Shown here: positions 3,992 through 58,349 of the stretch, piece after piece
Numbering within the stretch: position 1 is the stretch's first letter
How the letters are laid out: every line of letters starts with the position of its first letter
Source: Candidatus Moranbacteria bacterium UBA2282
GTDB lineage: Bacteria; Patescibacteriota; Minisyncoccia; Moranbacterales; UBA2206
Assembly (NCBI GenBank): GCA_002345745.1
Contig: DDWQ01000005.1
Span: 3,707 to 67,706 of the forward strand
Length of the DNA: 64,000 nt
Reading direction: 5' to 3'
The notes under the pieces: generated by a model
Told to the model about the DNA's origin: nothing
What the model saw: the letters and a program-made list of their open reading frames with translations, nothing else
Databases searched by the model: none
Translations under genes and position numbers: made by a program

Positions 3992-4065
3992 GTGGGCGTG
4001 CTTAGATTCGAACTGAGGACCTCGTCATTATCAGTGACGCGCTCTAACCAACTGAGCTACACGCC
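3992..4065 (-). tRNA. tRNA-Ile (anticodon GAT)
   Basis: The reverse complement folds as a 74-nt cloverleaf: GGGCGTG acceptor, GCTC/GAGC D-stem, anticodon loop CTGATAA, TTCGAAT T-loop. Confidence 0.85.
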
Positions 4066-4134
4066 CATATTATGTCGTCGCAAAACGACTCCTAATTTAA
4101 AATTATAAATTTAAAATTTAAAATTAATTTCGGG

Positions 4135-4208
4135 TGGACCCTGGGGGATTCGAACTCCCGGCCTCCTCGGTGCAAGCGAGGCGCTCTAGCCAACTGAGCT
4201 AAGGGCCC
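4135..4208 (-). tRNA. tRNA-Ala (anticodon TGC) with G3:U70 identity pair
   Basis: Reverse complement GGGCCCTTAGCTCAG...CTTGCAC...TTCGAAT...AGGGTCCA has anticodon loop CTTGCAC and a G3:U70 wobble in the acceptor stem. One A:C mismatch in the T-stem. Confidence 0.8.
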
Positions 4209-4254
4209 ATTTATTTTTCAACAACTATAATTCATTATACATTAAAATATAATA

Positions 4255-12280: not shown

Positions 12281-12329
12281 TTTAGCCCGTCTTTATTAAA
12301 AAGGGATTGGAGAAAATCTCAGTTTTTAA

Positions 12330-13316
12330 TTATTTCATAAACTTCGCCACTTCTTTTTGCATATCGGAATATTTTTCTAGCCAGATGATTCGCTTGTCTT
12401 TGGAAAACCAAGTCATCTGGCGTTTGGCGTAATCTTTTTCCGCCAGATAGACTTTTTCGTAGAGCTCTTCTAGTATGATTTTCTTTTGCAAGTATTCCGG
12501 CATCCAAAAATAGCCCAAGCCGAAGCTCTGGATTTTTTCCCAACTCAATCCTTGTCGGTGGAGTTTTTCCGTTTCTGCTAGCATTCCATCGCTCCAGCGT
12601 GCATCTAGACGTGCTTTGATTCTGGCGTGCAGGGTTTCTTTCGGTACGGAGACCCCGATTTGCAAAAATTGGTATTTGGTATTTGGTATTTGGTATTTTG
12701 TATCTGGAACATGTCCGAGTGATCCGCAAATTTCGATAGCTCTGATTAAACGAACTTTATTTTTAGCATCAATATCCTTTGCGCGTCTTGGGTCGAGTTT
12801 TTTTAATCGAGAAAATAATTCTTCTGTTGATTCTTTGTCTAATTCTTTACGCAACTGCCAATCTGGTTCAACTTCCGGATAAGCGATGTTGTCCACAATC
12901 GATTTGATCCAGAAACCGGTGCCACCGCACAAAATCGGCAGCTTGCCACGGCGCAAAATGTCTGCGATAACTTTATCTGCTTGTTGCTTAAACTCAGCAG
13001 CGCTGAAAGTGTCTTGAGGATTAACAATATCAATCATATAATGCGGAATGCCTTCAGACATAAAAATATCTTTTGTATTTTGTATCTTGTATTTTGTATC
13101 TTGTTTGGTGCTTGGTGTTTGGTGTTTGATGTTTGCATCCCTGATGACTTTACCAGTGCCTATGTCCATTCCACGATAAATCTGCCGTGAATCCACGGAC
13201 ACGATTTCACCATCAAATTCTCGAGCAAGTTTAATCGCCACTGCGGATTTTCCGGCTGAAGTTGGACCTAATATCACAACAATTTTGTTTGATTGTATTT
13301 TTTTGATAGATGTCAT
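12330..13316 (-). CDS. miaA: tRNA dimethylallyltransferase MiaA, carrying two in-frame heptamer-repeat insertions
   Basis: P-loop ILGPTSAGKSAVAIKLA and SVDSRQIYRGMDIGTGK motifs. Extra peptide tracts HQTPSTKQDTKYKIQNTKD and TKYQIPNTKYQ are encoded by 7-nt tandem repeats. Confidence 0.85.
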   Translation of the reverse strand: MTSIKKIQSNKIVVILGPTSAGKSAVAIKLAREFDGEIVSVDSRQIYRGMDIGTGKVIRDANIKHQTPSTKQDTKYKIQNTKDIFMSEGIPHYMIDIVNPQDTFSAAEFKQQADKVIADILRRGKLPILCGGTGFWIKSIVDNIAYPEVEPDWQLRKELDKESTEELFSRLKKLDPRRAKDIDAKNKVRLIRAIEICGSLGHVPDTKYQIPNTKYQFLQIGVSVPKETLHARIKARLDARWSDGMLAETEKLHRQGLSWEKIQSFGLGYFWMPEYLQKKIILEELYEKVYLAEKDYAKRQMTWFSKDKRIIWLEKYSDMQKEVAKFMK

Positions 13317-13402: not shown

Positions 13403-14818
13403 TTAAACCAGCTCTCCTTCCAAATTCCAAATATTGGCCTTCGTAATTTTCACTTTCGCAAATTGTCCGACGAGATTTTTCTTAGAAGAAATTATTTTCA
13501 CATTTTTGCCAGTGCGGGTTTTGCCGAAATATATATTATTTTTTTCTTTTCTTGCCACGTGGTCCGATTTGTCGGACTTTACGTGGTCGATCAACACTTC
13601 CTGCACGGTATTTTTATATTTTTTATTATGGGCGAAAGTGGTTTTTTTCAGAATTTCATTTAGGAATTGTTCTCGGTGTTCTTTTTCGGTCTTGGAAACA
13701 TCATCTTTCATCTTCCAAGCAACTGTGCCGGGGCGGGGTGAAAATTGACCGAAGAAAACTAGATCATATTTGGCTTTGTGCATAATTTCCGCGGACTGCA
13801 TAAATTGCTTTTTAGTTTCACCGGGGAAACCGACAATAATGTCAGAAGTCAACGCAAACGGTGTATTAGGTTTATACGCTTTAAAGGAAATTTTTATTTT
13901 TCTAACTAAATTCAGATAATGCTTAATGGTGTATTTGCGATTCATTTTTTGCAAAATTTCATCTGAACCGGACTGAATTGGTAGATGTACCAACTCACAC
14001 ACTTTTCTTGATTTGGCAATTACTTCAATCAGTTCGTCCGACATATCTTTCGGATGTGAAGACACAAATTGAATCCAAAATTTTCCAGGAATAGCATTGA
14101 TTTTTTTAAGCAACTGCGGAAAACTTACGGTTCTGTAGGGGTGAAACCCCTTTGTAGGGGTTTCACCCCTGCTGTCACAATAGCTGTTCACATTTTGTCC
14201 CAAGAGCGTAATTGATTTGTAACCATCTTTGATCAAGTCTTTTATTTCAGTAATTATTTCAGTGGCTGGGCGGGAAGTCTCACGACCGCGAGCATAGGGA
14301 ACAACGCAATAGGAGCAGAAGTTATTACAGCCGGTCATTATCGGAACAAAAGCCTGGAAGGCGTTGGTATATTGGGGATTAATAGACAGATAATCAATGT
14401 TTTCTTTAGTCAGGTGGTTATTGCTTTGTTCCGAAATTTTCAATTTTAAATTTTCAATTTTTAATGAATTTTCAATGACAAAATTTTCAAACAATCCAAA
14501 TTTGTTGATTGGAAAAAATAAATCCACCTTATTTTTCAGTCTTCGTTGCACATCTTTGCGATTGGCGAGGCAACCAGTTAAAACAATCTGCAGTGGTTTT
14601 TTTTCCGCCACAGATTTCTTTTTGAGATTATGGATTTGTCCATAGACGCGGTCTTCTGCCATTTGTCGCACGCCACAAGTATTAAAAATAACTAAATCAG
14701 CCTCCGCAATCTTTGAGGCTAGCTTGTAATTTCGATCTTCCAAGAATCCCGCAATTCGCTCGGAATCGGAAATATTCATTTGGCAACCGAAAGTTTTGAT
14801 AAAATATTTTTTAGACAT
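13403..14818 (-). CDS. miaB: tRNA-i6A37 methylthiotransferase MiaB, with in-frame palindromic insertion
   Basis: UPF0004 N-terminal domain FIKTFGCQMN, radical-SAM CNNFCSYCVVP, TRAM C-terminus. A perfect 15-bp inverted repeat at 14141-14174 adds about 10 residues (GETPTKGFHPY) in frame. Confidence 0.85.
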   Translation of the reverse strand: MSKKYFIKTFGCQMNISDSERIAGFLEDRNYKLASKIAEADLVIFNTCGVRQMAEDRVYGQIHNLKKKSVAEKKPLQIVLTGCLANRKDVQRRLKNKVDLFFPINKFGLFENFVIENSLKIENLKLKISEQSNNHLTKENIDYLSINPQYTNAFQAFVPIMTGCNNFCSYCVVPYARGRETSRPATEIITEIKDLIKDGYKSITLLGQNVNSYCDSRGETPTKGFHPYRTVSFPQLLKKINAIPGKFWIQFVSSHPKDMSDELIEVIAKSRKVCELVHLPIQSGSDEILQKMNRKYTIKHYLNLVRKIKISFKAYKPNTPFALTSDIIVGFPGETKKQFMQSAEIMHKAKYDLVFFGQFSPRPGTVAWKMKDDVSKTEKEHREQFLNEILKKTTFAHNKKYKNTVQEVLIDHVKSDKSDHVARKEKNNIYFGKTRTGKNVKIISSKKNLVGQFAKVKITKANIWNLEGELV

Positions 14819-22962: not shown

Positions 22963-25365
22963 GTGTGCAAAATAAAATTTATGAAAAAAATAAAAAAGAT
23001 TATTTGTTCTAAAAAAAATCTAAAACGAGATATCAGTATCATCACACTTTCTTTGTTGTTGGCGGTCTCAGTTGTCAAAGCTGGCAACTTGGATTCCATT
23101 AGCAGTCCGAGTGCTACGGGATATACCTTGACCGATATCTATCAAAGATTGACAACCAATCAAAGTGCAAATGACAGCGAACATATTTTTTCACCGTTAG
23201 CTGATCCGTCCGCTAGCTTTCATACATTAAAAGAAATTTATGAATCCATTCCAACTATTGAAGCGAGCAAAGTTAAATTAGGCACAGATTATTTGGGAAT
23301 TTCTGGAACTCTTTTACCAAGTGGAGGGACAACTGATGCTGGCAATGTGCTAAGTGGCAAAACTTTTTTTGGCAATAATCAAACTGATTGGACTTTGCAA
23401 ACTGGATCAATGCCTAACATTGGACAACAAGTTTTGACTCCTGGAATTGTCGATCAAATCATTACTCTCGGTTATCACGATGGCACTGGAAAAGTTGTCG
23501 GTGACACTGACTTAATTTCTGGCAATATCAGAAGCGGAATCAATCTTTTTGGAATAGACGGTGATTCTGACGTGGTGGACACATCATCAGGAACGGCAAT
23601 TGCTAATGAATTGGTGTCAGGAAAAAAAGCGTGGGTTGGTGGGGTTGAACTTACTGGCATGTTAGCGAATATTGGACAGCAAATTCTCACCCCTGGAATA
23701 ATAAATCAGACAATTACTTCAGGATATCATAATGGTACAGGATATGTTTTAGGTGACACTGAGTTGATTTCAACTAACATTAAAAGCGGAGTAAATATTT
23801 TCGGAGTTGCTGGTGATTCTAATGTGGTCGACACTTCTTCGGGAGATGCTGTCGCGGGAAACTTGTTGTCCGGGAAAAAAGCTTGGGTGGACGGTGCAGA
23901 AGTCACGGGAAATTTTGCTTCGCAAGAAAAAACCGCAACCACTGAAGGCGAGCAAATAACGCCAGACTCTGGTAATTGGCTGTCCAAAGTTACAATAGCA
24001 ATAACAAATTTAATTACGGGAAATATTAAAAAATCAGTCACGGTTGGTGGTGTGGCAGGAACTTATTCAGGTTTTCCGGGAACTGGTTGGACACCTAATG
24101 GGTCTGGCGATGGTTCAACTGCACTCACTCAAACTATTTGTGAAGCGCAGGGTGCCAATTGGAAATGGTTTGAAGATGCCAACGGAGATGGCGATACAAT
24201 TGATCCAGAAGATGGAATTTGCATTAAGACTGCAACTATCACATCAGATTCTTGGAATGGTGCGGAACAAATGAATGGCTATGTTTTGGCTGACACAACT
24301 ATGGCCTCTGGAACTTCAAATTCCGTGACAGTTGCTGGCACACCATGGGTAGCAGATCGCTATAAAAATGAAATTGTGAAAATCATCTCCGGAACAGCTT
24401 CGCCTTGTTGGGGAATTGTGAAAACCAACACCACAAACACCATCACAGTTTTTGGCTCTTGGTTGCAATCAACCTATGCGGCTTGTGCGACAACTCCAGA
24501 TGCCACTTCACACATTCAAGTTTTTGATGATAATAAATTCGACAATTCTTTTATTGGAGATTATTCTTGTGCTGGAAATTTTCCAAGCGGAACAGTGACA
24601 CTTGGATCGTATCCCACAAGCGGCACAATTGCTTTGGCAGTAACGGATTGCTATGACGGCAAAAGGGATTTATTACCTAATGAAACTGATCGAGCGGTGC
24701 TCTCTGGCACAGTAACGACGACCGATGCCACTTCAGTGACTGATTCTGATCAAGCAATGTCAGTTAACGTCTGGATAGGACAAAAAGTTTTGATTACAGG
24801 CGGAACAGGCAGTGGTTCATATGGAGTTGTGGAAAGCAACACTGGAACAAAATTGACGGTCGCTAGTTGGAGCGGAACAGCACCTGATGTTGCATCAACT
24901 TTCAAAATTATTTATATTTTGCCTCGGTCAGCTTATGTTGGTACGGCAGGAATGTCACAAATTATTGGTGGCACAAGTGATGATGTCAAAGCTGGTCAAG
25001 GACCACTTGCGGAGAAACAACTAAAAGAATGGGTCGGCACAAAACTTCCAACCTCGCAAGATTTTTTCGGTTTTTGTGGTGCCACTTCTGGTGATGCTGA
25101 TGGAACTGCTGGTGGCAGCACATATAGTTCCTCTGGTGCTTCGACTAATAGCACAATTGGAAATTATGGATCTAATGTTGGTAGAGGAAAAAACGCTGCG
25201 CCGAATGATGAATATATGGATCTTTCTAATAGCGGTTCTTGGGAGTGGCTTTCAGAGCAGCACAGTGGCAGTGGTGCTCGGGTTGCCGGCAATAGCGCTT
25301 GCTCGTACTTCGGTAGTTCTAATGTCAACAGTGGCTATCGGTTCAGAGCGGTGTTTCGCCCCTAA
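22963..25365 (+). CDS. DGR target protein: secreted/anchored protein with three tandem ~80-aa repeats and a C-terminal C-type-lectin-like variable region
   Basis: N-terminal signal/anchor. Repeated blocks NIGQQ(V/I)LTPGI...GD(S/T)(D/N)VVDTSSG...SGKKAWV. C-terminus ...NSACSYFGSSNVNSGYRFRAVFRP contains the VR that matches the TR downstream. Confidence 0.85.
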   Translation: MCKIKFMKKIKKIICSKKNLKRDISIITLSLLLAVSVVKAGNLDSISSPSATGYTLTDIYQRLTTNQSANDSEHIFSPLADPSASFHTLKEIYESIPTIEASKVKLGTDYLGISGTLLPSGGTTDAGNVLSGKTFFGNNQTDWTLQTGSMPNIGQQVLTPGIVDQIITLGYHDGTGKVVGDTDLISGNIRSGINLFGIDGDSDVVDTSSGTAIANELVSGKKAWVGGVELTGMLANIGQQILTPGIINQTITSGYHNGTGYVLGDTELISTNIKSGVNIFGVAGDSNVVDTSSGDAVAGNLLSGKKAWVDGAEVTGNFASQEKTATTEGEQITPDSGNWLSKVTIAITNLITGNIKKSVTVGGVAGTYSGFPGTGWTPNGSGDGSTALTQTICEAQGANWKWFEDANGDGDTIDPEDGICIKTATITSDSWNGAEQMNGYVLADTTMASGTSNSVTVAGTPWVADRYKNEIVKIISGTASPCWGIVKTNTTNTITVFGSWLQSTYAACATTPDATSHIQVFDDNKFDNSFIGDYSCAGNFPSGTVTLGSYPTSGTIALAVTDCYDGKRDLLPNETDRAVLSGTVTTTDATSVTDSDQAMSVNVWIGQKVLITGGTGSGSYGVVESNTGTKLTVASWSGTAPDVASTFKIIYILPRSAYVGTAGMSQIIGGTSDDVKAGQGPLAEKQLKEWVGTKLPTSQDFFGFCGATSGDADGTAGGSTYSSSGASTNSTIGNYGSNVGRGKNAAPNDEYMDLSNSGSWEWLSEQHSGSGARVAGNSACSYFGSSNVNSGYRFRAVFRP

Positions 25366-25366: not shown

Positions 25367-25415
25367 TTTTTTCCCGTCAAAATATTTGATGATTTGGTGA
25401 TTTGGATAATTTGAG

Positions 25416-25540
25416 TACCGCGAATTACGCAGATTTAAACTAATTCCGCTAATTTAAATACCGCGAATTACGCAGATTTAAACTAATCCCGCTAATTTAA
25501 ATACCGCGAATTACGCAGATTTAAACTAATTCCGCTAATT
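25416..25540 (+). repeat. Tandem direct repeat, 43-bp unit x ~3 (TACCGCGAATTACGCAGATTTAAACTAATTCCGCTAATTTAAA)
   Basis: Copies start at 25416, 25459 and 25502. One C/T difference between copies. The third copy is truncated at the GxxExxY start codon. Confidence 0.9.
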
Positions 25541-25924
25541 ATGACAGAAAAATTACTGCACAAAGAACTTTTGTATAGGTTGGTAGGCGCCGCGATGGAT
25601 GTACATAAAATTTTAGGACCTGGATTTCTTGAAGGAACTTATCAAAAAGCTTATGAAAAGGAACTAGGGATCCAGAAAATTACTTTTATCTCCCAGAAGA
25701 GAATTAAAATATTCTATAAAGGTATTGATTTGGGATTCCAGGTGCTAGATTTGATTGTGGATAATAAGATAATTATAGAAATAAAAGCTGTTTCCGAAAT
25801 TTTACCAATTCATCAAGCTCAGCTAATATCTTATTTGAAAGCGACCGAGTATGAACTTGGAATTTTGATAAACTTTGGTGCTAAAAGTTTACAGTATAAA
25901 AGATTGGTATTTACAAAAAATTAG
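25541..25924 (+). CDS. GxxExxY-family protein (PD-(D/E)XK-like; family often found in 23S rRNA intervening sequences)
   Basis: 127 aa with a GFLEGTY motif near the N-terminus and size typical of the family. Flanked upstream by 43-bp repeats and downstream by an inverted copy of the GCGAATTACGC core (GCGTAATTCGC at 25924-25934). Confidence 0.65.
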   Translation: MTEKLLHKELLYRLVGAAMDVHKILGPGFLEGTYQKAYEKELGIQKITFISQKRIKIFYKGIDLGFQVLDLIVDNKIIIEIKAVSEILPIHQAQLISYLKATEYELGILINFGAKSLQYKRLVFTKN

Positions 25925-25958: not shown

Positions 25959-26342
25959 ATGGCACGATACGAACATATCAAAATTTTCCAAGTAGCCTAT
26001 ATTTTGACAGTGGAGATTCATAAAGTTGCATCCAAATTCGGCAAAAAACACCGATATACTTTGGGTGAGAAAATAAAAAATCTTTGCAGTGATATGTTGG
26101 ATATGATCGTGGTGGCAAATGCAGCGACGGAAAAACAAGAATCTTTGAAAATGATTGACGCGCAACTGGAAAAAATCAGAATTCAATTGCGCATCGTGTA
26201 TGATCTGCGAATAATCAGTGCCGGACTGCTAGGCATTCTCAACAAACGCATTGAGGAAGTTGGTCGGCAACTTGGTGGGTGGCAGAAGTGGGCGGAAGAG
26301 GAAGCTTGTCCGTCCGCTCCTGCCAGAGTCTCTGTGGACTAA
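25959..26342 (+). CDS. avd: DGR accessory variability determinant (Avd)-like four-helix-bundle protein
   Basis: 127-aa basic helical protein. IFQVAYILTVEIHKVASKFGKKHRYTLGEKIKNLCSDMLDMIVVANAA resembles the PF05635/Avd family. Lies between VR and TR. Confidence 0.75.
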   Translation: MARYEHIKIFQVAYILTVEIHKVASKFGKKHRYTLGEKIKNLCSDMLDMIVVANAATEKQESLKMIDAQLEKIRIQLRIVYDLRIISAGLLGILNKRIEEVGRQLGGWQKWAEEEACPSAPARVSVD

Positions 26343-30758: not shown

Positions 30759-31265
30759 ATGGCGAATAGGCATTTAGCTCGTTCAATCGCGATGCAATCT
30801 CTCTATGAGTGGGATTTTAAAGGTAAGAAAACTGAGAATTTAGACGAGATTATTAAAAAAAATATTCAAGAATTTGCTCCTGGAATTGAGGACGATTCTT
30901 TTGTATACCATTTGGTGAAAAATACCATTAAGAATCAAGATAAAATCGATCCTTTAATTGAAAAATGTGCGCCAGAATGGCCTTTGGAACAAGTGACAGT
31001 GGTTGACCGAAATATATTGCGTTTGGGAATTTATGAATTACTCTTCGGTAACTATGACGATGTTCCACCAAAAGTAGCTATTAACGAAGCTATCGAACTT
31101 GCAAAATCTTTTGGGGGCGAATCTTCAGGAAGATTTGTAAATGGTGTGCTGGGCACGATTTATCGTGAACTAGGTGAGCCGATGAAGAATGACAAATCTA
31201 AAAATGATAAAAAGATTGCTGAGGTTAAAAGTGACGGAGAAGATGTGACGGTTGAAGCATTGTAA
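30759..31265 (+). CDS. nusB: Transcription antitermination factor NusB
   Basis: 168 aa. [18 protein letters not shown]-terminal motif and all-helical NusB fold length. Confidence 0.85.
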
Positions 31266-31390
31266 ATTTTAAATAACCAATAACCAAGAAACAATCACCA
31301 AACAAATTTCAAGTTCCAATAATCAAAGTTTGAATATTTGATTATTGAATATTATTTGATTATTGTATCTTGTTTCTTGTATCTTGTGAG
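31266..31390. repeat. Imperfect ~55-bp-arm inverted repeat built from heptamer units (AACCAAT.../...TTGTATCTTGT)
   Basis: Left arm AAATAACCAATAACCAAGAAACAATCACC...CCAATAATCAAAG. Right arm TTTGATTATTG...TTGTATCTTGTTTCTTGTATCTTGTG. Located in the intergenic region upstream of rnc. Confidence 0.6.
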
Positions 31391-32080
31391 ATGATAGAAA
31401 AATTAGCCGAAAAATTAGGCATAAAATTTAATAATCTTGATCTTCTGCAACAAGCTTTGACACATCGCTCATATTTGAATGAGCATAGAAGTTACAAGCT
31501 GGATCACAACGAGCGATTGGAGTTTCTCGGAGACGCTGTTTTGGAATTGGTAGTAACTGAATTTTTATATGCTAACTATACTAACCCAGAAGGTGATTTG
31601 ACTAACTGGCGAGCCGCTTTGGTTAATGGAGAAATGTTGGCAAAAATTTCCACTAAATTGGGAGTAGAAGAATTTTTATTAATGAGCAAAGGCGAATCTA
31701 AGGACACTGGCAAAGCACGTCAATATTTGCTGGCTAATGCTTTTGAATCGATTACGGGTGCGATTTATTTAGACCAAAAGGAAAATGGCTTCAATGTCGC
31801 TAAGAAATTTATTTTAAAAAATGTTGTTTCGCAATTACCTGAGATTATAGAAAGCAAGTCATATATGGATCCCAAGAGTCTTTTTCAAGAAAAAGCGCAA
31901 GAAAAATCCGGCATCACGCCGTCATACAAGGTAATGGAAGAAACTGGACCAGATCATGCTCGCGAGTTTGTCGTCGGCGTCTATCTGGAACACGAATTGA
32001 TTGCTAGTGGCAAAGGTTTGTCCAAGCAAGAGGCTCAAAGAAACGCCGCCGCCGCTGGATTGGAAGTCAAAAAATGGTAG
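31391..32080 (+). CDS. rnc: Ribonuclease III
   Basis: ERLEFLGDAVLELVVTEFLY RNase III signature and C-terminal dsRBD. Start assumed at MIEKLAE; the ORF track begins at 31370. Confidence 0.9.
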   Translation: MIEKLAEKLGIKFNNLDLLQQALTHRSYLNEHRSYKLDHNERLEFLGDAVLELVVTEFLYANYTNPEGDLTNWRAALVNGEMLAKISTKLGVEEFLLMSKGESKDTGKARQYLLANAFESITGAIYLDQKENGFNVAKKFILKNVVSQLPEIIESKSYMDPKSLFQEKAQEKSGITPSYKVMEETGPDHAREFVVGVYLEHELIASGKGLSKQEAQRNAAAAGLEVKKW

Positions 32081-58195: not shown

Positions 58196-58349
58196 TTCTG
58201 GGCTGTGGATAACTCACCCTTGCCATTGTGGCAGAGTGGAGTAGAATAGGGAGGTAGGCAATACAAGTGGGGCGAAGTGGATAATCACCCTACGAATTAC
58301 GAATACGCTACGCTTTACGAATGTACGAATTATACGAATAAAAAATTAT

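Follow-up and report, generated by a model that had tools for sequence, protein, structure and literature searches.

Heptanucleotide tandem repeats at two positions of the miaA gene in a Candidatus Moranbacteria bacterium

The gene for the tRNA dimethylallyltransferase MiaA of Candidatus Moranbacteria bacterium UBA2282 carries, within its reading frame, two tracts of tandem 7-nucleotide (nt) units, one following the GTGK motif of the protein (site 1) and one running up to the nearly invariant Tyr214 (site 2). The gene lies in a 64,000-nt stretch of contig DDWQ01000005.1 (positions 3,707 to 67,706) that was analysed as a whole and is referred to here as the window. The tracts are likely to be heptanucleotide simple sequence repeats (SSRs) of a single A/C-rich family that are made and homogenised at the level of the DNA and tolerated in miaA, and as a class they join the known prokaryotic heptanucleotide repeats. 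It is proposed that replication slippage or unequal exchange on the DNA would generate and maintain the tracts, with no selection for the repeated peptide. A repeat process acting on DNA would thereby write low-complexity loops into a highly conserved enzyme, and would explain part of the length variation of MiaA (294-358 amino acids, aa) in the Candidate Phyla Radiation (CPR).

The arrays and their origin at the DNA level

Arrays were called with Tandem Repeats Finder (TRF) on the window. Three arrays of period 7 with scores of 54-64 are found in the interval of interest, all inside the miaA open reading frame (ORF), and under strict scoring these are the only period-7 arrays of the 64 kb and the strongest there, with none in shuffled sequence. 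The gene and the features within it are listed below.

12330 to 13316, minus strand: miaA (tRNA dimethylallyltransferase), an intact ORF of 328 aa (Pfam IPPT, 1.2e-62)
13102 to 13135, minus strand: site-1 array A, TRF unit TGTTTGG, 4.9 copies; about five units of CCAAACA on the coding strand, reading (I)KHQTPSTKQ
13071 to 13104, minus strand: site-1 array B, TRF unit TTTTGTA, 4.9 copies; about five units of AGATACA/AAATACA, reading DTKYKIQNTK
13059 to 13145, minus strand: lineage-variable site-1 insertion, aa 58-86, IRDANIKHQTPSTKQDTKYKIQNTKDIFM, between the GTGK motif and the SEGIPH strand
12669 to 12707, minus strand: site-2 array, TRF unit TTGGTAT, 5.6 copies, 90% matches; AGATACA followed by (AAATACC)x4, reading DTKYQIPNTKYQ
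12666 to 12719, minus strand: block of 54 nt (LGHVP, the array and F) that is identical in the codon alignment of the window gene and its relatives P0002 and P0004

Array B can alternatively be described by TRF as a perfect 14-mer in 2.3 copies. On the coding strand the site-1 tract runs through the units GCAAACA, TCAAACA, CCAAACA, CCAAGCA, CCAAACA, AGATACA, AAATACA, AGATACA and AAATACA (aa ~61-82), and the site-2 array corresponds to aa 204-216, its final unit encoding the nearly invariant Tyr214-Gln215. The units of both tracts belong to the A/C-rich family CCAAAYA/AAATACM. The original prediction had placed heptamer tracts in frame inside miaA, with which the arrays at 12669-12707 and 13071-13135 and the intact ORF agree; it had also given the tract lengths as multiples of 21 nt, which is incorrect, as its own coordinates amount to 35 and 69 nt and the TRF arrays to 39 and about 65 nt.

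The repeats in miaA are primary at the level of the DNA and not of the peptide. When both peptides were back-translated 20,000 times with synonymous codons, following the codon usage of 19 long ORFs of the window, the 7-nt periodicity of site 2 (0.93) was matched by a single back-translation (P=5e-5) and that of the site-1 tract (0.83) by none of the 20,000. The arrays also employ minority codons where the heptamer needs them, namely TAC (14% of Tyr codons), ATA (14% of Ile) and ACC (16% of Thr). Period 7 stands out in the surrounding DNA as well. At looser thresholds the window contains 10 period-7 arrays where 0.4 are expected, or 6 where 0.05 are expected, and 0-5 arrays of each other period between 4 and 15. 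Related CPR loci (82 kb) hold 10 period-7 arrays against 0-3 for each other period, and a scan of the window for the ARAYACM family yields three arrays compared with none in five shuffles.

The units AAATACC, CCAAACA, AAATACA and AGATACA are without stop codons in all six frames, a property shared by only 18% of the heptamer classes with two G or C positions and 6% of those with one. Their sense readings are hydrophilic (KYQIPNT, PNTKHQT, KYKIQNT) and the antisense reading is hydrophobic (GIWYLVF). The tracts would persist in miaA because the units are free of stops, the sense reading is hydrophilic and both positions tolerate change, which amounts to a simple rule for gene-compatible heptamers: stop-free in every frame, with a hydrophilic sense reading.

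On the plus strand, ORFs at 12616..12882 (88 aa) and 12981..13190 (69 aa) traverse the arrays in antisense and read peptides of the GIWYLVF/CILYLVF type. These ORFs are probably spurious and could be miscalled as small membrane proteins. For annotation in general, KYQIPNT or GIWYLVF in metagenomic proteins is to be taken as read-through of a repeat and not as a domain.

Two variable positions in the MiaA protein

The identification of the gene as miaA, already made in the original prediction, is borne out by profile, motifs and fold. Residues 45-306 cover positions 1-242 of the 243 positions of the IPPT profile (PF01715) with 212 bits against a cutoff of 23.6. The P-loop GPTSAGKS (aa 16-23) is of the type GPT(A/S)xGK(S/T), DSRQIYRGMDIGTGK at aa 41-55 is the DSxQxY...IGT(A/G)K motif, and the columns of both are invariant in homologue alignment A1. 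The closest sequence matches in the PDB are the MiaA entries 3d3q, 2qgn and 2zm5. The AlphaFold2 (AF2) model has a predicted local distance difference test score (pLDDT) of 78.8 and adopts the MiaA fold, with its core and helical insertion domain; the top Foldseek matches are all MiaA, and the template modelling (TM) score against the E. coli MiaA-tRNA complexes 3foz and 2zm5 is 0.73-0.79. The gene is flanked by gatB on one side and miaB on the other. By the names of its homologues the organism falls in the Patescibacteria (CPR), near Moranbacteria and Parcubacteria. We infer that the product of the gene is a normal, constitutively in-frame MiaA. The canonical bacterial enzymes (E. coli 2ZM5/3FOZ, S. 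epidermidis 3D3Q, B. halodurans 2QGN/3EXA) share fold and motifs with the window protein and have a site-2 loop of similar length that ends in the same Tyr-Gln. The window protein differs from them in a low-complexity insertion of about 25 residues after GT(A/G)K, which is found in none of these structures, and in a site-2 loop whose sequence is overwritten by the DNA repeat.

At site 1, residues 58-86 stand opposite 2-7 residues in 3d3q, 2qgn and 2zm5, which leaves about 25 residues extra relative to every solved bacterial MiaA. The insertion is lacking in P0002 (83% identical) and P0004 (82%) and present in P0003 and P0005. A repeat-derived insertion had been predicted here, and to this extent it is real; it is not a clean short form with heptamers added, as the flanks (IRD... 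/ ...DIFMSEG) differ from the short form too. Among 120 CPR homologues the equivalent segment measures 10 to 68 aa: 29 have 10 residues (the canonical T-x-E-E-Q-x-G-I), 17 have 18, a single one has 68, and most of the others have 27-40 residues, frequently of low complexity. The long form keeps its flanks, xRD ... [FY]xSxGI, over many lineages, and on a homologue tree built with both sites removed the short, medium and long forms are interspersed. P0005 has ten units at site 1 as the window does, with an A-to-G variant that occupies four adjacent units in P0005 and one in the window.

In the AF2 model pLDDT falls below 50 over residues 44-79, a range that covers most of the insert. Strands 83-86 and 89-93 then form a short hairpin ahead of the conserved IPHYMIDI strand. 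Judged from this model, the site-1 insert is probably a disordered excursion. Site 2 is modelled as coil between helix 186-199 and strand 215-221. Both sites thus fall in non-regular segments, in keeping with the earlier placement of the tracts in loops.

The site-2 loop is 2-3 residues shorter than in 3d3q, 2qgn and 2zm5 and its terminal Tyr-Gln aligns with theirs, which contradicts the claim that about seven residues are added here relative to canonical MiaA; it exceeds the loop of the closest array-free relatives by 3 aa. Among the 120 homologues the loop has 11 aa in 48, 14 in 20 and 8 in 16. Occurrence of the same peptide in orthologues, which had been held to speak against a repeat-derived insert, is in part observed at this site: dozens of CPR orthologues at 55-83% identity have [DN]TKYQI[PL]NTK-Y or near variants, up to the nearly invariant Tyr214.

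The site-2 array persists over considerable divergence while its units turn over. In P0076, P0035, P0046 and P0101, which are only about 60% identical, 7-nt periodicity at site 2 is 0.63-0.81 compared with about 0.28 gene-wide, and individual lineages have units of their own, each in several copies: AAATACT in P0035, AGATACC in P0046 and alternating CAGATAC/CCGATAC in P0101. That each lineage has its own unit variant, common to adjacent units, points to homogenisation in place. As far as sequence comparison can tell, this would be the pattern expected of concerted evolution in an old array whose total length is fixed by the reading frame: only net changes of 3n nt survive, so that array length would remain constant while the units homogenise per lineage. 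The positions that tolerate this process would be the hypervariable excursion after GTGK at site 1 and, at site 2, the coil before the core strand that starts at Tyr214. In the window, P0002 and P0004 the array codons are identical at 12 of 12 positions, whereas elsewhere about 60% of the codons at conserved residues are identical, and the 54-nt block is the longest identical run of the gene.

The selection of a peptide would turn this argument around. According to this explanation the NTKYQI-NTKY loop, together with the site-1 arm, is functional, for example in contacting tRNA, and the DNA periodicity is a by-product. Recurrence of the site-2 type in dozens of CPR MiaAs with its end at Tyr214, and the conserved flanks of the long site-1 form in many lineages, are in its favour. 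It is nevertheless considered unlikely, as codon choice is far more periodic than peptide and codon usage together predict (P<=5e-5), close relatives do without the peptide (PEEKSDPQ-type loops in 16 of 120, the short site-1 form in 29 of 120) and unit variants freely alter it (ILNTK, IPDTR, KIQDTR). The same peptide also occurs at the N-termini of P0031 and P0091 and in unrelated proteins, and insert 1 is predicted to be disordered.

The gene is in addition a mosaic. In a comparison with loci L004, L005, L008 and L009, sliding nucleotide identity places the window nearest to P0005 and P0003 in the site-1 region (88-96%) and nearest to P0002 and P0004 in the site-2 region (85-100%), a pattern that suggests recombination of homologous miaA segments between related CPR lineages. 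Such recombination appears to reshuffle the site-1 and site-2 segments, and it probably adds to the conservation of the 54-nt block and to the scattered site-1 forms. The arrays could on these grounds be imported segments that arrived by recombination or with a small mobile sequence and were not made in place; the mosaic profile, the mixing of short, medium and long site-1 forms on the tree and the occurrence of the AAATACC unit in many phyla would all fit. Yet no terminal repeats, target duplications or associated genes accompany the arrays, control heptamers are equally frequent, and site 2 overlaps the ancestral conserved codons for Tyr214-Gln215, which is consistent with a local seed. As recombination accounts for the distribution of the arrays and not for their origin, import is regarded as quite improbable, and generation in place by slippage or unequal exchange is preferred.

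Different low-complexity inserts occupy sites 1 and 2 in other CPR MiaAs, for example KKSLALRNSESSARGRKKPSF (in at least eight sequences), KVKSQKSKLQGKIQNYK, PSPKGRGSSSSSPLGRG and IRNHESDANLRINYPTRKFVDSDSF. The last of these looks like translated heptamers of the TACGAAT type, a unit also present at 58291-58340 of the window upstream of mraZ.

Unit number and phase variation

A change of one unit in a 7-nt array breaks the reading frame, and the original prediction had therefore raised the possibility of a contingency locus, in which gain or loss of units would toggle the miaA frame and render the tRNA modification i6A37 (N6-isopentenyladenosine at position 37) phase-variable. The arithmetic is sound. 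Simulated changes of one or two units in either direction give products of 82-98 aa at site 1 and of 234, 241, 327 or 334 aa with junk tails at site 2, so that MiaA would be truncated or garbled. Heptanucleotide tracts can moreover drive phase variation in H. influenzae, where the known phase-variable tracts comprise about 6-38 perfect units, differ from strain to strain and are associated with surface-protein genes (PMC2651432). The repeats of hmw1A/hmw2A (TGAAAGA) and the AATTTTG and AACAACC repeats resemble the miaA arrays in that a change of one 7-nt unit shifts the frame within an ORF (PMC2651432). They differ in that they lie in or upstream of genes for surface proteins and receptors (PMC2651432), whereas the tracts of the window lie in a housekeeping gene, have at most four perfect units and have been invariant so far.

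Length variants are what the idea of a switch lacks. Contingency loci with units of 4-7 nt typically have at least six perfect units; in miaA the maximum is four (AAATACC), with 2-3 elsewhere and the remainder imperfect. The miaA DNA is identical across three contigs from three samples, and the samples in which this exact gene occurs are SRR1313264, SRR1313257 and JGI 3300040971. A look-up of contigs by exact protein finds the same MiaA encoded on 8 contigs; the protein is the sole member of its 90% cluster, and there are no high-identity partial matches to it among 5.8 billion proteins. Three lineages with an overall identity of about 80% have the site-2 array in identical form, and the number of site-1 units is equal in the window and P0005. 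Two scans of metagenome contigs for the site-2 flank pattern with a gap of 14-44 nt gave no matches in a collection that does not contain these lineages; the pattern itself is valid, as it matches the window, L001-3, L008 and L009. Exact-protein look-up, protein cluster and flank scans together recovered no alleles differing by whole units. Tract length and constancy between samples thus set miaA apart from contingency loci, as does the nature of a gene that is neither a surface or host-interaction gene nor one for restriction-modification. There is also no conserved alternative product after site 2. Phase-variable tRNA modification is accordingly judged very unlikely, and this reading was dropped for lack of supporting evidence in the contigs and proteins compared. 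A mere artefact of assembly or sequencing, to which tandem repeats are prone, is scarcely credible: the same sequence is obtained in independent assemblies of different samples, the frame is intact and other lineages have orthologous arrays.

One further frame was considered in this context. An ORF of 136 aa at 12319..12729 (minus strand, +2 frame) overlaps miaA, starting just upstream of the site-2 array and ending 11 nt past the miaA stop, and would be entered by a slip of +1 or -2 units. As a conserved alternative product it was rejected: the +2 frame runs open over 114 codons in the window and over no more than 6-44 in eight relatives, which marks the ORF as a chance feature.

Heptamer repeats beyond miaA

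The preference for period 7 extends far beyond this gene. More than 119 stretches with exact (AAATACC)x3 occur among the reference genomes, spread over many phyla. The 849 kb surrounding AAATACC arrays of other genomes contain 232 arrays of period 7 compared with at most 13 of any other period, and 111 of the 232 are not the seed arrays themselves and have 84 different units. In open frames of at least 300 aa that contain an AAATACC array the hydrophilic reading occurs 25 times and GIWYLVF 8 times, whereas in contexts below 150 aa the two are nearly balanced (hydrophilic 42, hydrophobic 37). Five of the long frames outside the window are real proteins that carry the array in frame, namely a class I aminoacyl-tRNA synthetase (aaRS), PriA, a transketolase, a hybrid histidine kinase and an epimerase-glycosyltransferase open frame. 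AAATACC does not appear to be a special unit, and this idea was rejected: viral contigs contain 8 stretches of it and 32, 12 and 17 of three equally stop-free control units of the same composition, and the loci around AAATACC arrays hold the 84 other units as well.

Heptanucleotide repeats are over-represented among bacterial SSRs (PMC4679880, PMC4692102), and a proposal relayed in PMC4679880 is that a polymerase-DNA contact of about 7 nt favours slippage. The prokaryotic long SSRs of this class, as characterised in PMC4679880 and PMC4692102, comprise 3-10 head-to-tail 7-nt units with an enrichment of period 7 for which polymerase slippage is proposed, and the arrays of the window are alike. 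They differ in being located in a conserved housekeeping ORF and kept at an orthologous site across a CPR clade. Surveys of long SSRs, as summarised in PMC4679880, find units whose length is a multiple of three likeliest in coding regions, and a study of the GGGAATC repeat reports that its heptamer repeats are under-represented there (PMC4692102). Among named families the closest are the TAACTGA repeats of Beggiatoaceae, Cyanobacteria and Bacteroidetes (MacGregor 2015, PMC4679880) and the cyanobacterial short tandemly repeated repetitive (STRR) sequences, which like AAATACC form short heptamer arrays in scattered genomes. TAACTGA has a seven-residue reading in its permissive orientation, LSVISYQ (PMC4679880), as AAATACC has KYQIPNT, and the two units overlap in their taxa, with Microcoleus, Aequorivita and other Bacteroidota in common. 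TAACTGA contains stop codons on one of its strands, and its arrays mostly occupy intergenic sites ahead of start codons (PMC4679880), whereas the AAATACC family is stop-free and often coding, and AAATACC shows no sign of preference over control units. By their units (AAATACC, CCAAACA, AAATACA) and their coding location, the miaA arrays fall outside the TAACTGA and STRR families. No report of heptamer repeats in Patescibacteria was found in the literature, and neither was the peptide TKYQIPN or KYQIPNT.

The adjacent gene miaB (13403..14818, minus strand) also has a heptamer array, and a further array of the ARAYACM family is located elsewhere in the window.

14435 to 14465, minus strand: miaB heptamer array of the GAAAATT type (TRF), reading SLKIENLKLKI, in the interdomain linker
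31361 to 31389, minus strand: the only ARAYACM-family array of the window outside miaA; non-coding, in the rnc leader, flanked by the genes for NusB and RNase III

The miaB array lies between the UPF0004 (4-101) and Radical_SAM (158-344) domains and is conserved in L004; in L200 the linker reads KILNTKYQTLDTK and belongs to the AAATACC family. Of the strong period-7 arrays in some 146 kb of the clade, most fall within miaA and miaB.

A role of the repeats as nucleic acid would link these two genes. A factor could bind A/C-rich DNA or unstructured mRNA, for example with one cold-shock/OB-fold domain per 7 nt, and couple the expression of miaA and miaB. The perfect identity of 54 nt in three diverged lineages with its 12 identical codons would be accounted for, the presence of the AAATACC family in the miaB linker of a relative is suggestive, and binding of heptamers by CspB has been discussed for the TAACTGA repeats (PMC4679880). 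No RNA structure is predicted at the tracts (z +0.6 and +0.2), which would leave them unpaired in the mRNA. On the other side, unit sequence drifts among lineages, many relatives lack the arrays, AAATACC is no commoner than the controls in viral contigs, the recombination mosaic fits a high local identity, and the binding partner is only hypothetical; such an element is held to be improbable. The same low standing is given to a broader version, in which CCAAAYA/AAATACC would be a stop-free, coding-compatible family that is maintained in loops and linkers of translation and replication genes (MiaA, MiaB, class I aaRS, PriA) of CPR and other bacteria as a platform on which a single-strand-binding regulator would sit once every 7 nt, co-regulating miaA and miaB. 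The 54-nt identity, the persistent periodicity and the unpaired tracts are consistent with a binding platform, which is not favoured because controls are as common, units drift and many relatives are without arrays. Mimicry of the tRNA anticodon loop was also considered, as CCAAA resembles the A36-A37-A38 loop recognised by MiaA, and was rejected because the tracts offer no stem on which a loop could be displayed.

Repeats that are made and homogenised on the DNA and tolerated in the protein thus remain the favoured explanation, against which several observations have to be set. Lengths at site 2 step by 3 aa (8, 11, 14, 17) and not by the 7 aa expected of pure 21-nt slippage, which implies that other indels or boundary shifts act too. 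The identity of the 54-nt block over three lineages exceeds neutral drift (P roughly 0.001-0.04 under different assumptions on local identity) and could stem from constraint on the nucleotide sequence or from a recent recombination tract. No allele with another unit number was recovered that would show slippage directly. Finally, the favoured explanation does not account for the concentration of strong arrays in miaA and miaB, in a sample that is biased in this respect because the loci were chosen around miaA.

Another part of MiaB varies in length. At aa ~216-230 the window protein (CDSRGETPTKGFHPYRT) has 13 residues extra relative to the L004 orthologue, and L198 and L199 carry other sequences of similar length at this position, which points to a further indel-tolerant loop of MiaB.

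Between nusB (30759..31265) and rnc (probable ATG at ~31392), the region 31262-31395 contains A/C-rich heptamers of the AATAACC type at 31272-31301 and, inverted relative to them, T/G-rich heptamers at 31363-31387 (TTGTATC, of the miaA family). Together these heptamers form a long, imperfect hairpin (-24.2 kcal/mol, z = -2.8, with 2 of 200 shuffles as stable) that stops at the start codon of RNase III. It resembles the hairpin in the leader of E. coli rnc, which is self-cleaved.

At 25407-25540, after an 800-aa ORF (22963..25365) for which no Pfam match was found, there is a tandem repeat of 43 nt (3.1 copies, 95% matches). The repeat lies directly upstream of a PD-(D/E)XK_3 gene (25541..25924), which is in turn followed by a gene of the bAvd-like/23S rRNA intervening sequence (IVS) family (25959..26342). 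A search of the window with Rfam returns only three tRNAs and no rRNA was detected in it. At 3992-4209, tRNA-Ile(GAT) adjoins tRNA-Ala(TGC) in an order like that of a 16S-23S spacer, and the spacer between the two contains a further heptamer array, AATTTAA in 4.6 copies at 4094-4125.

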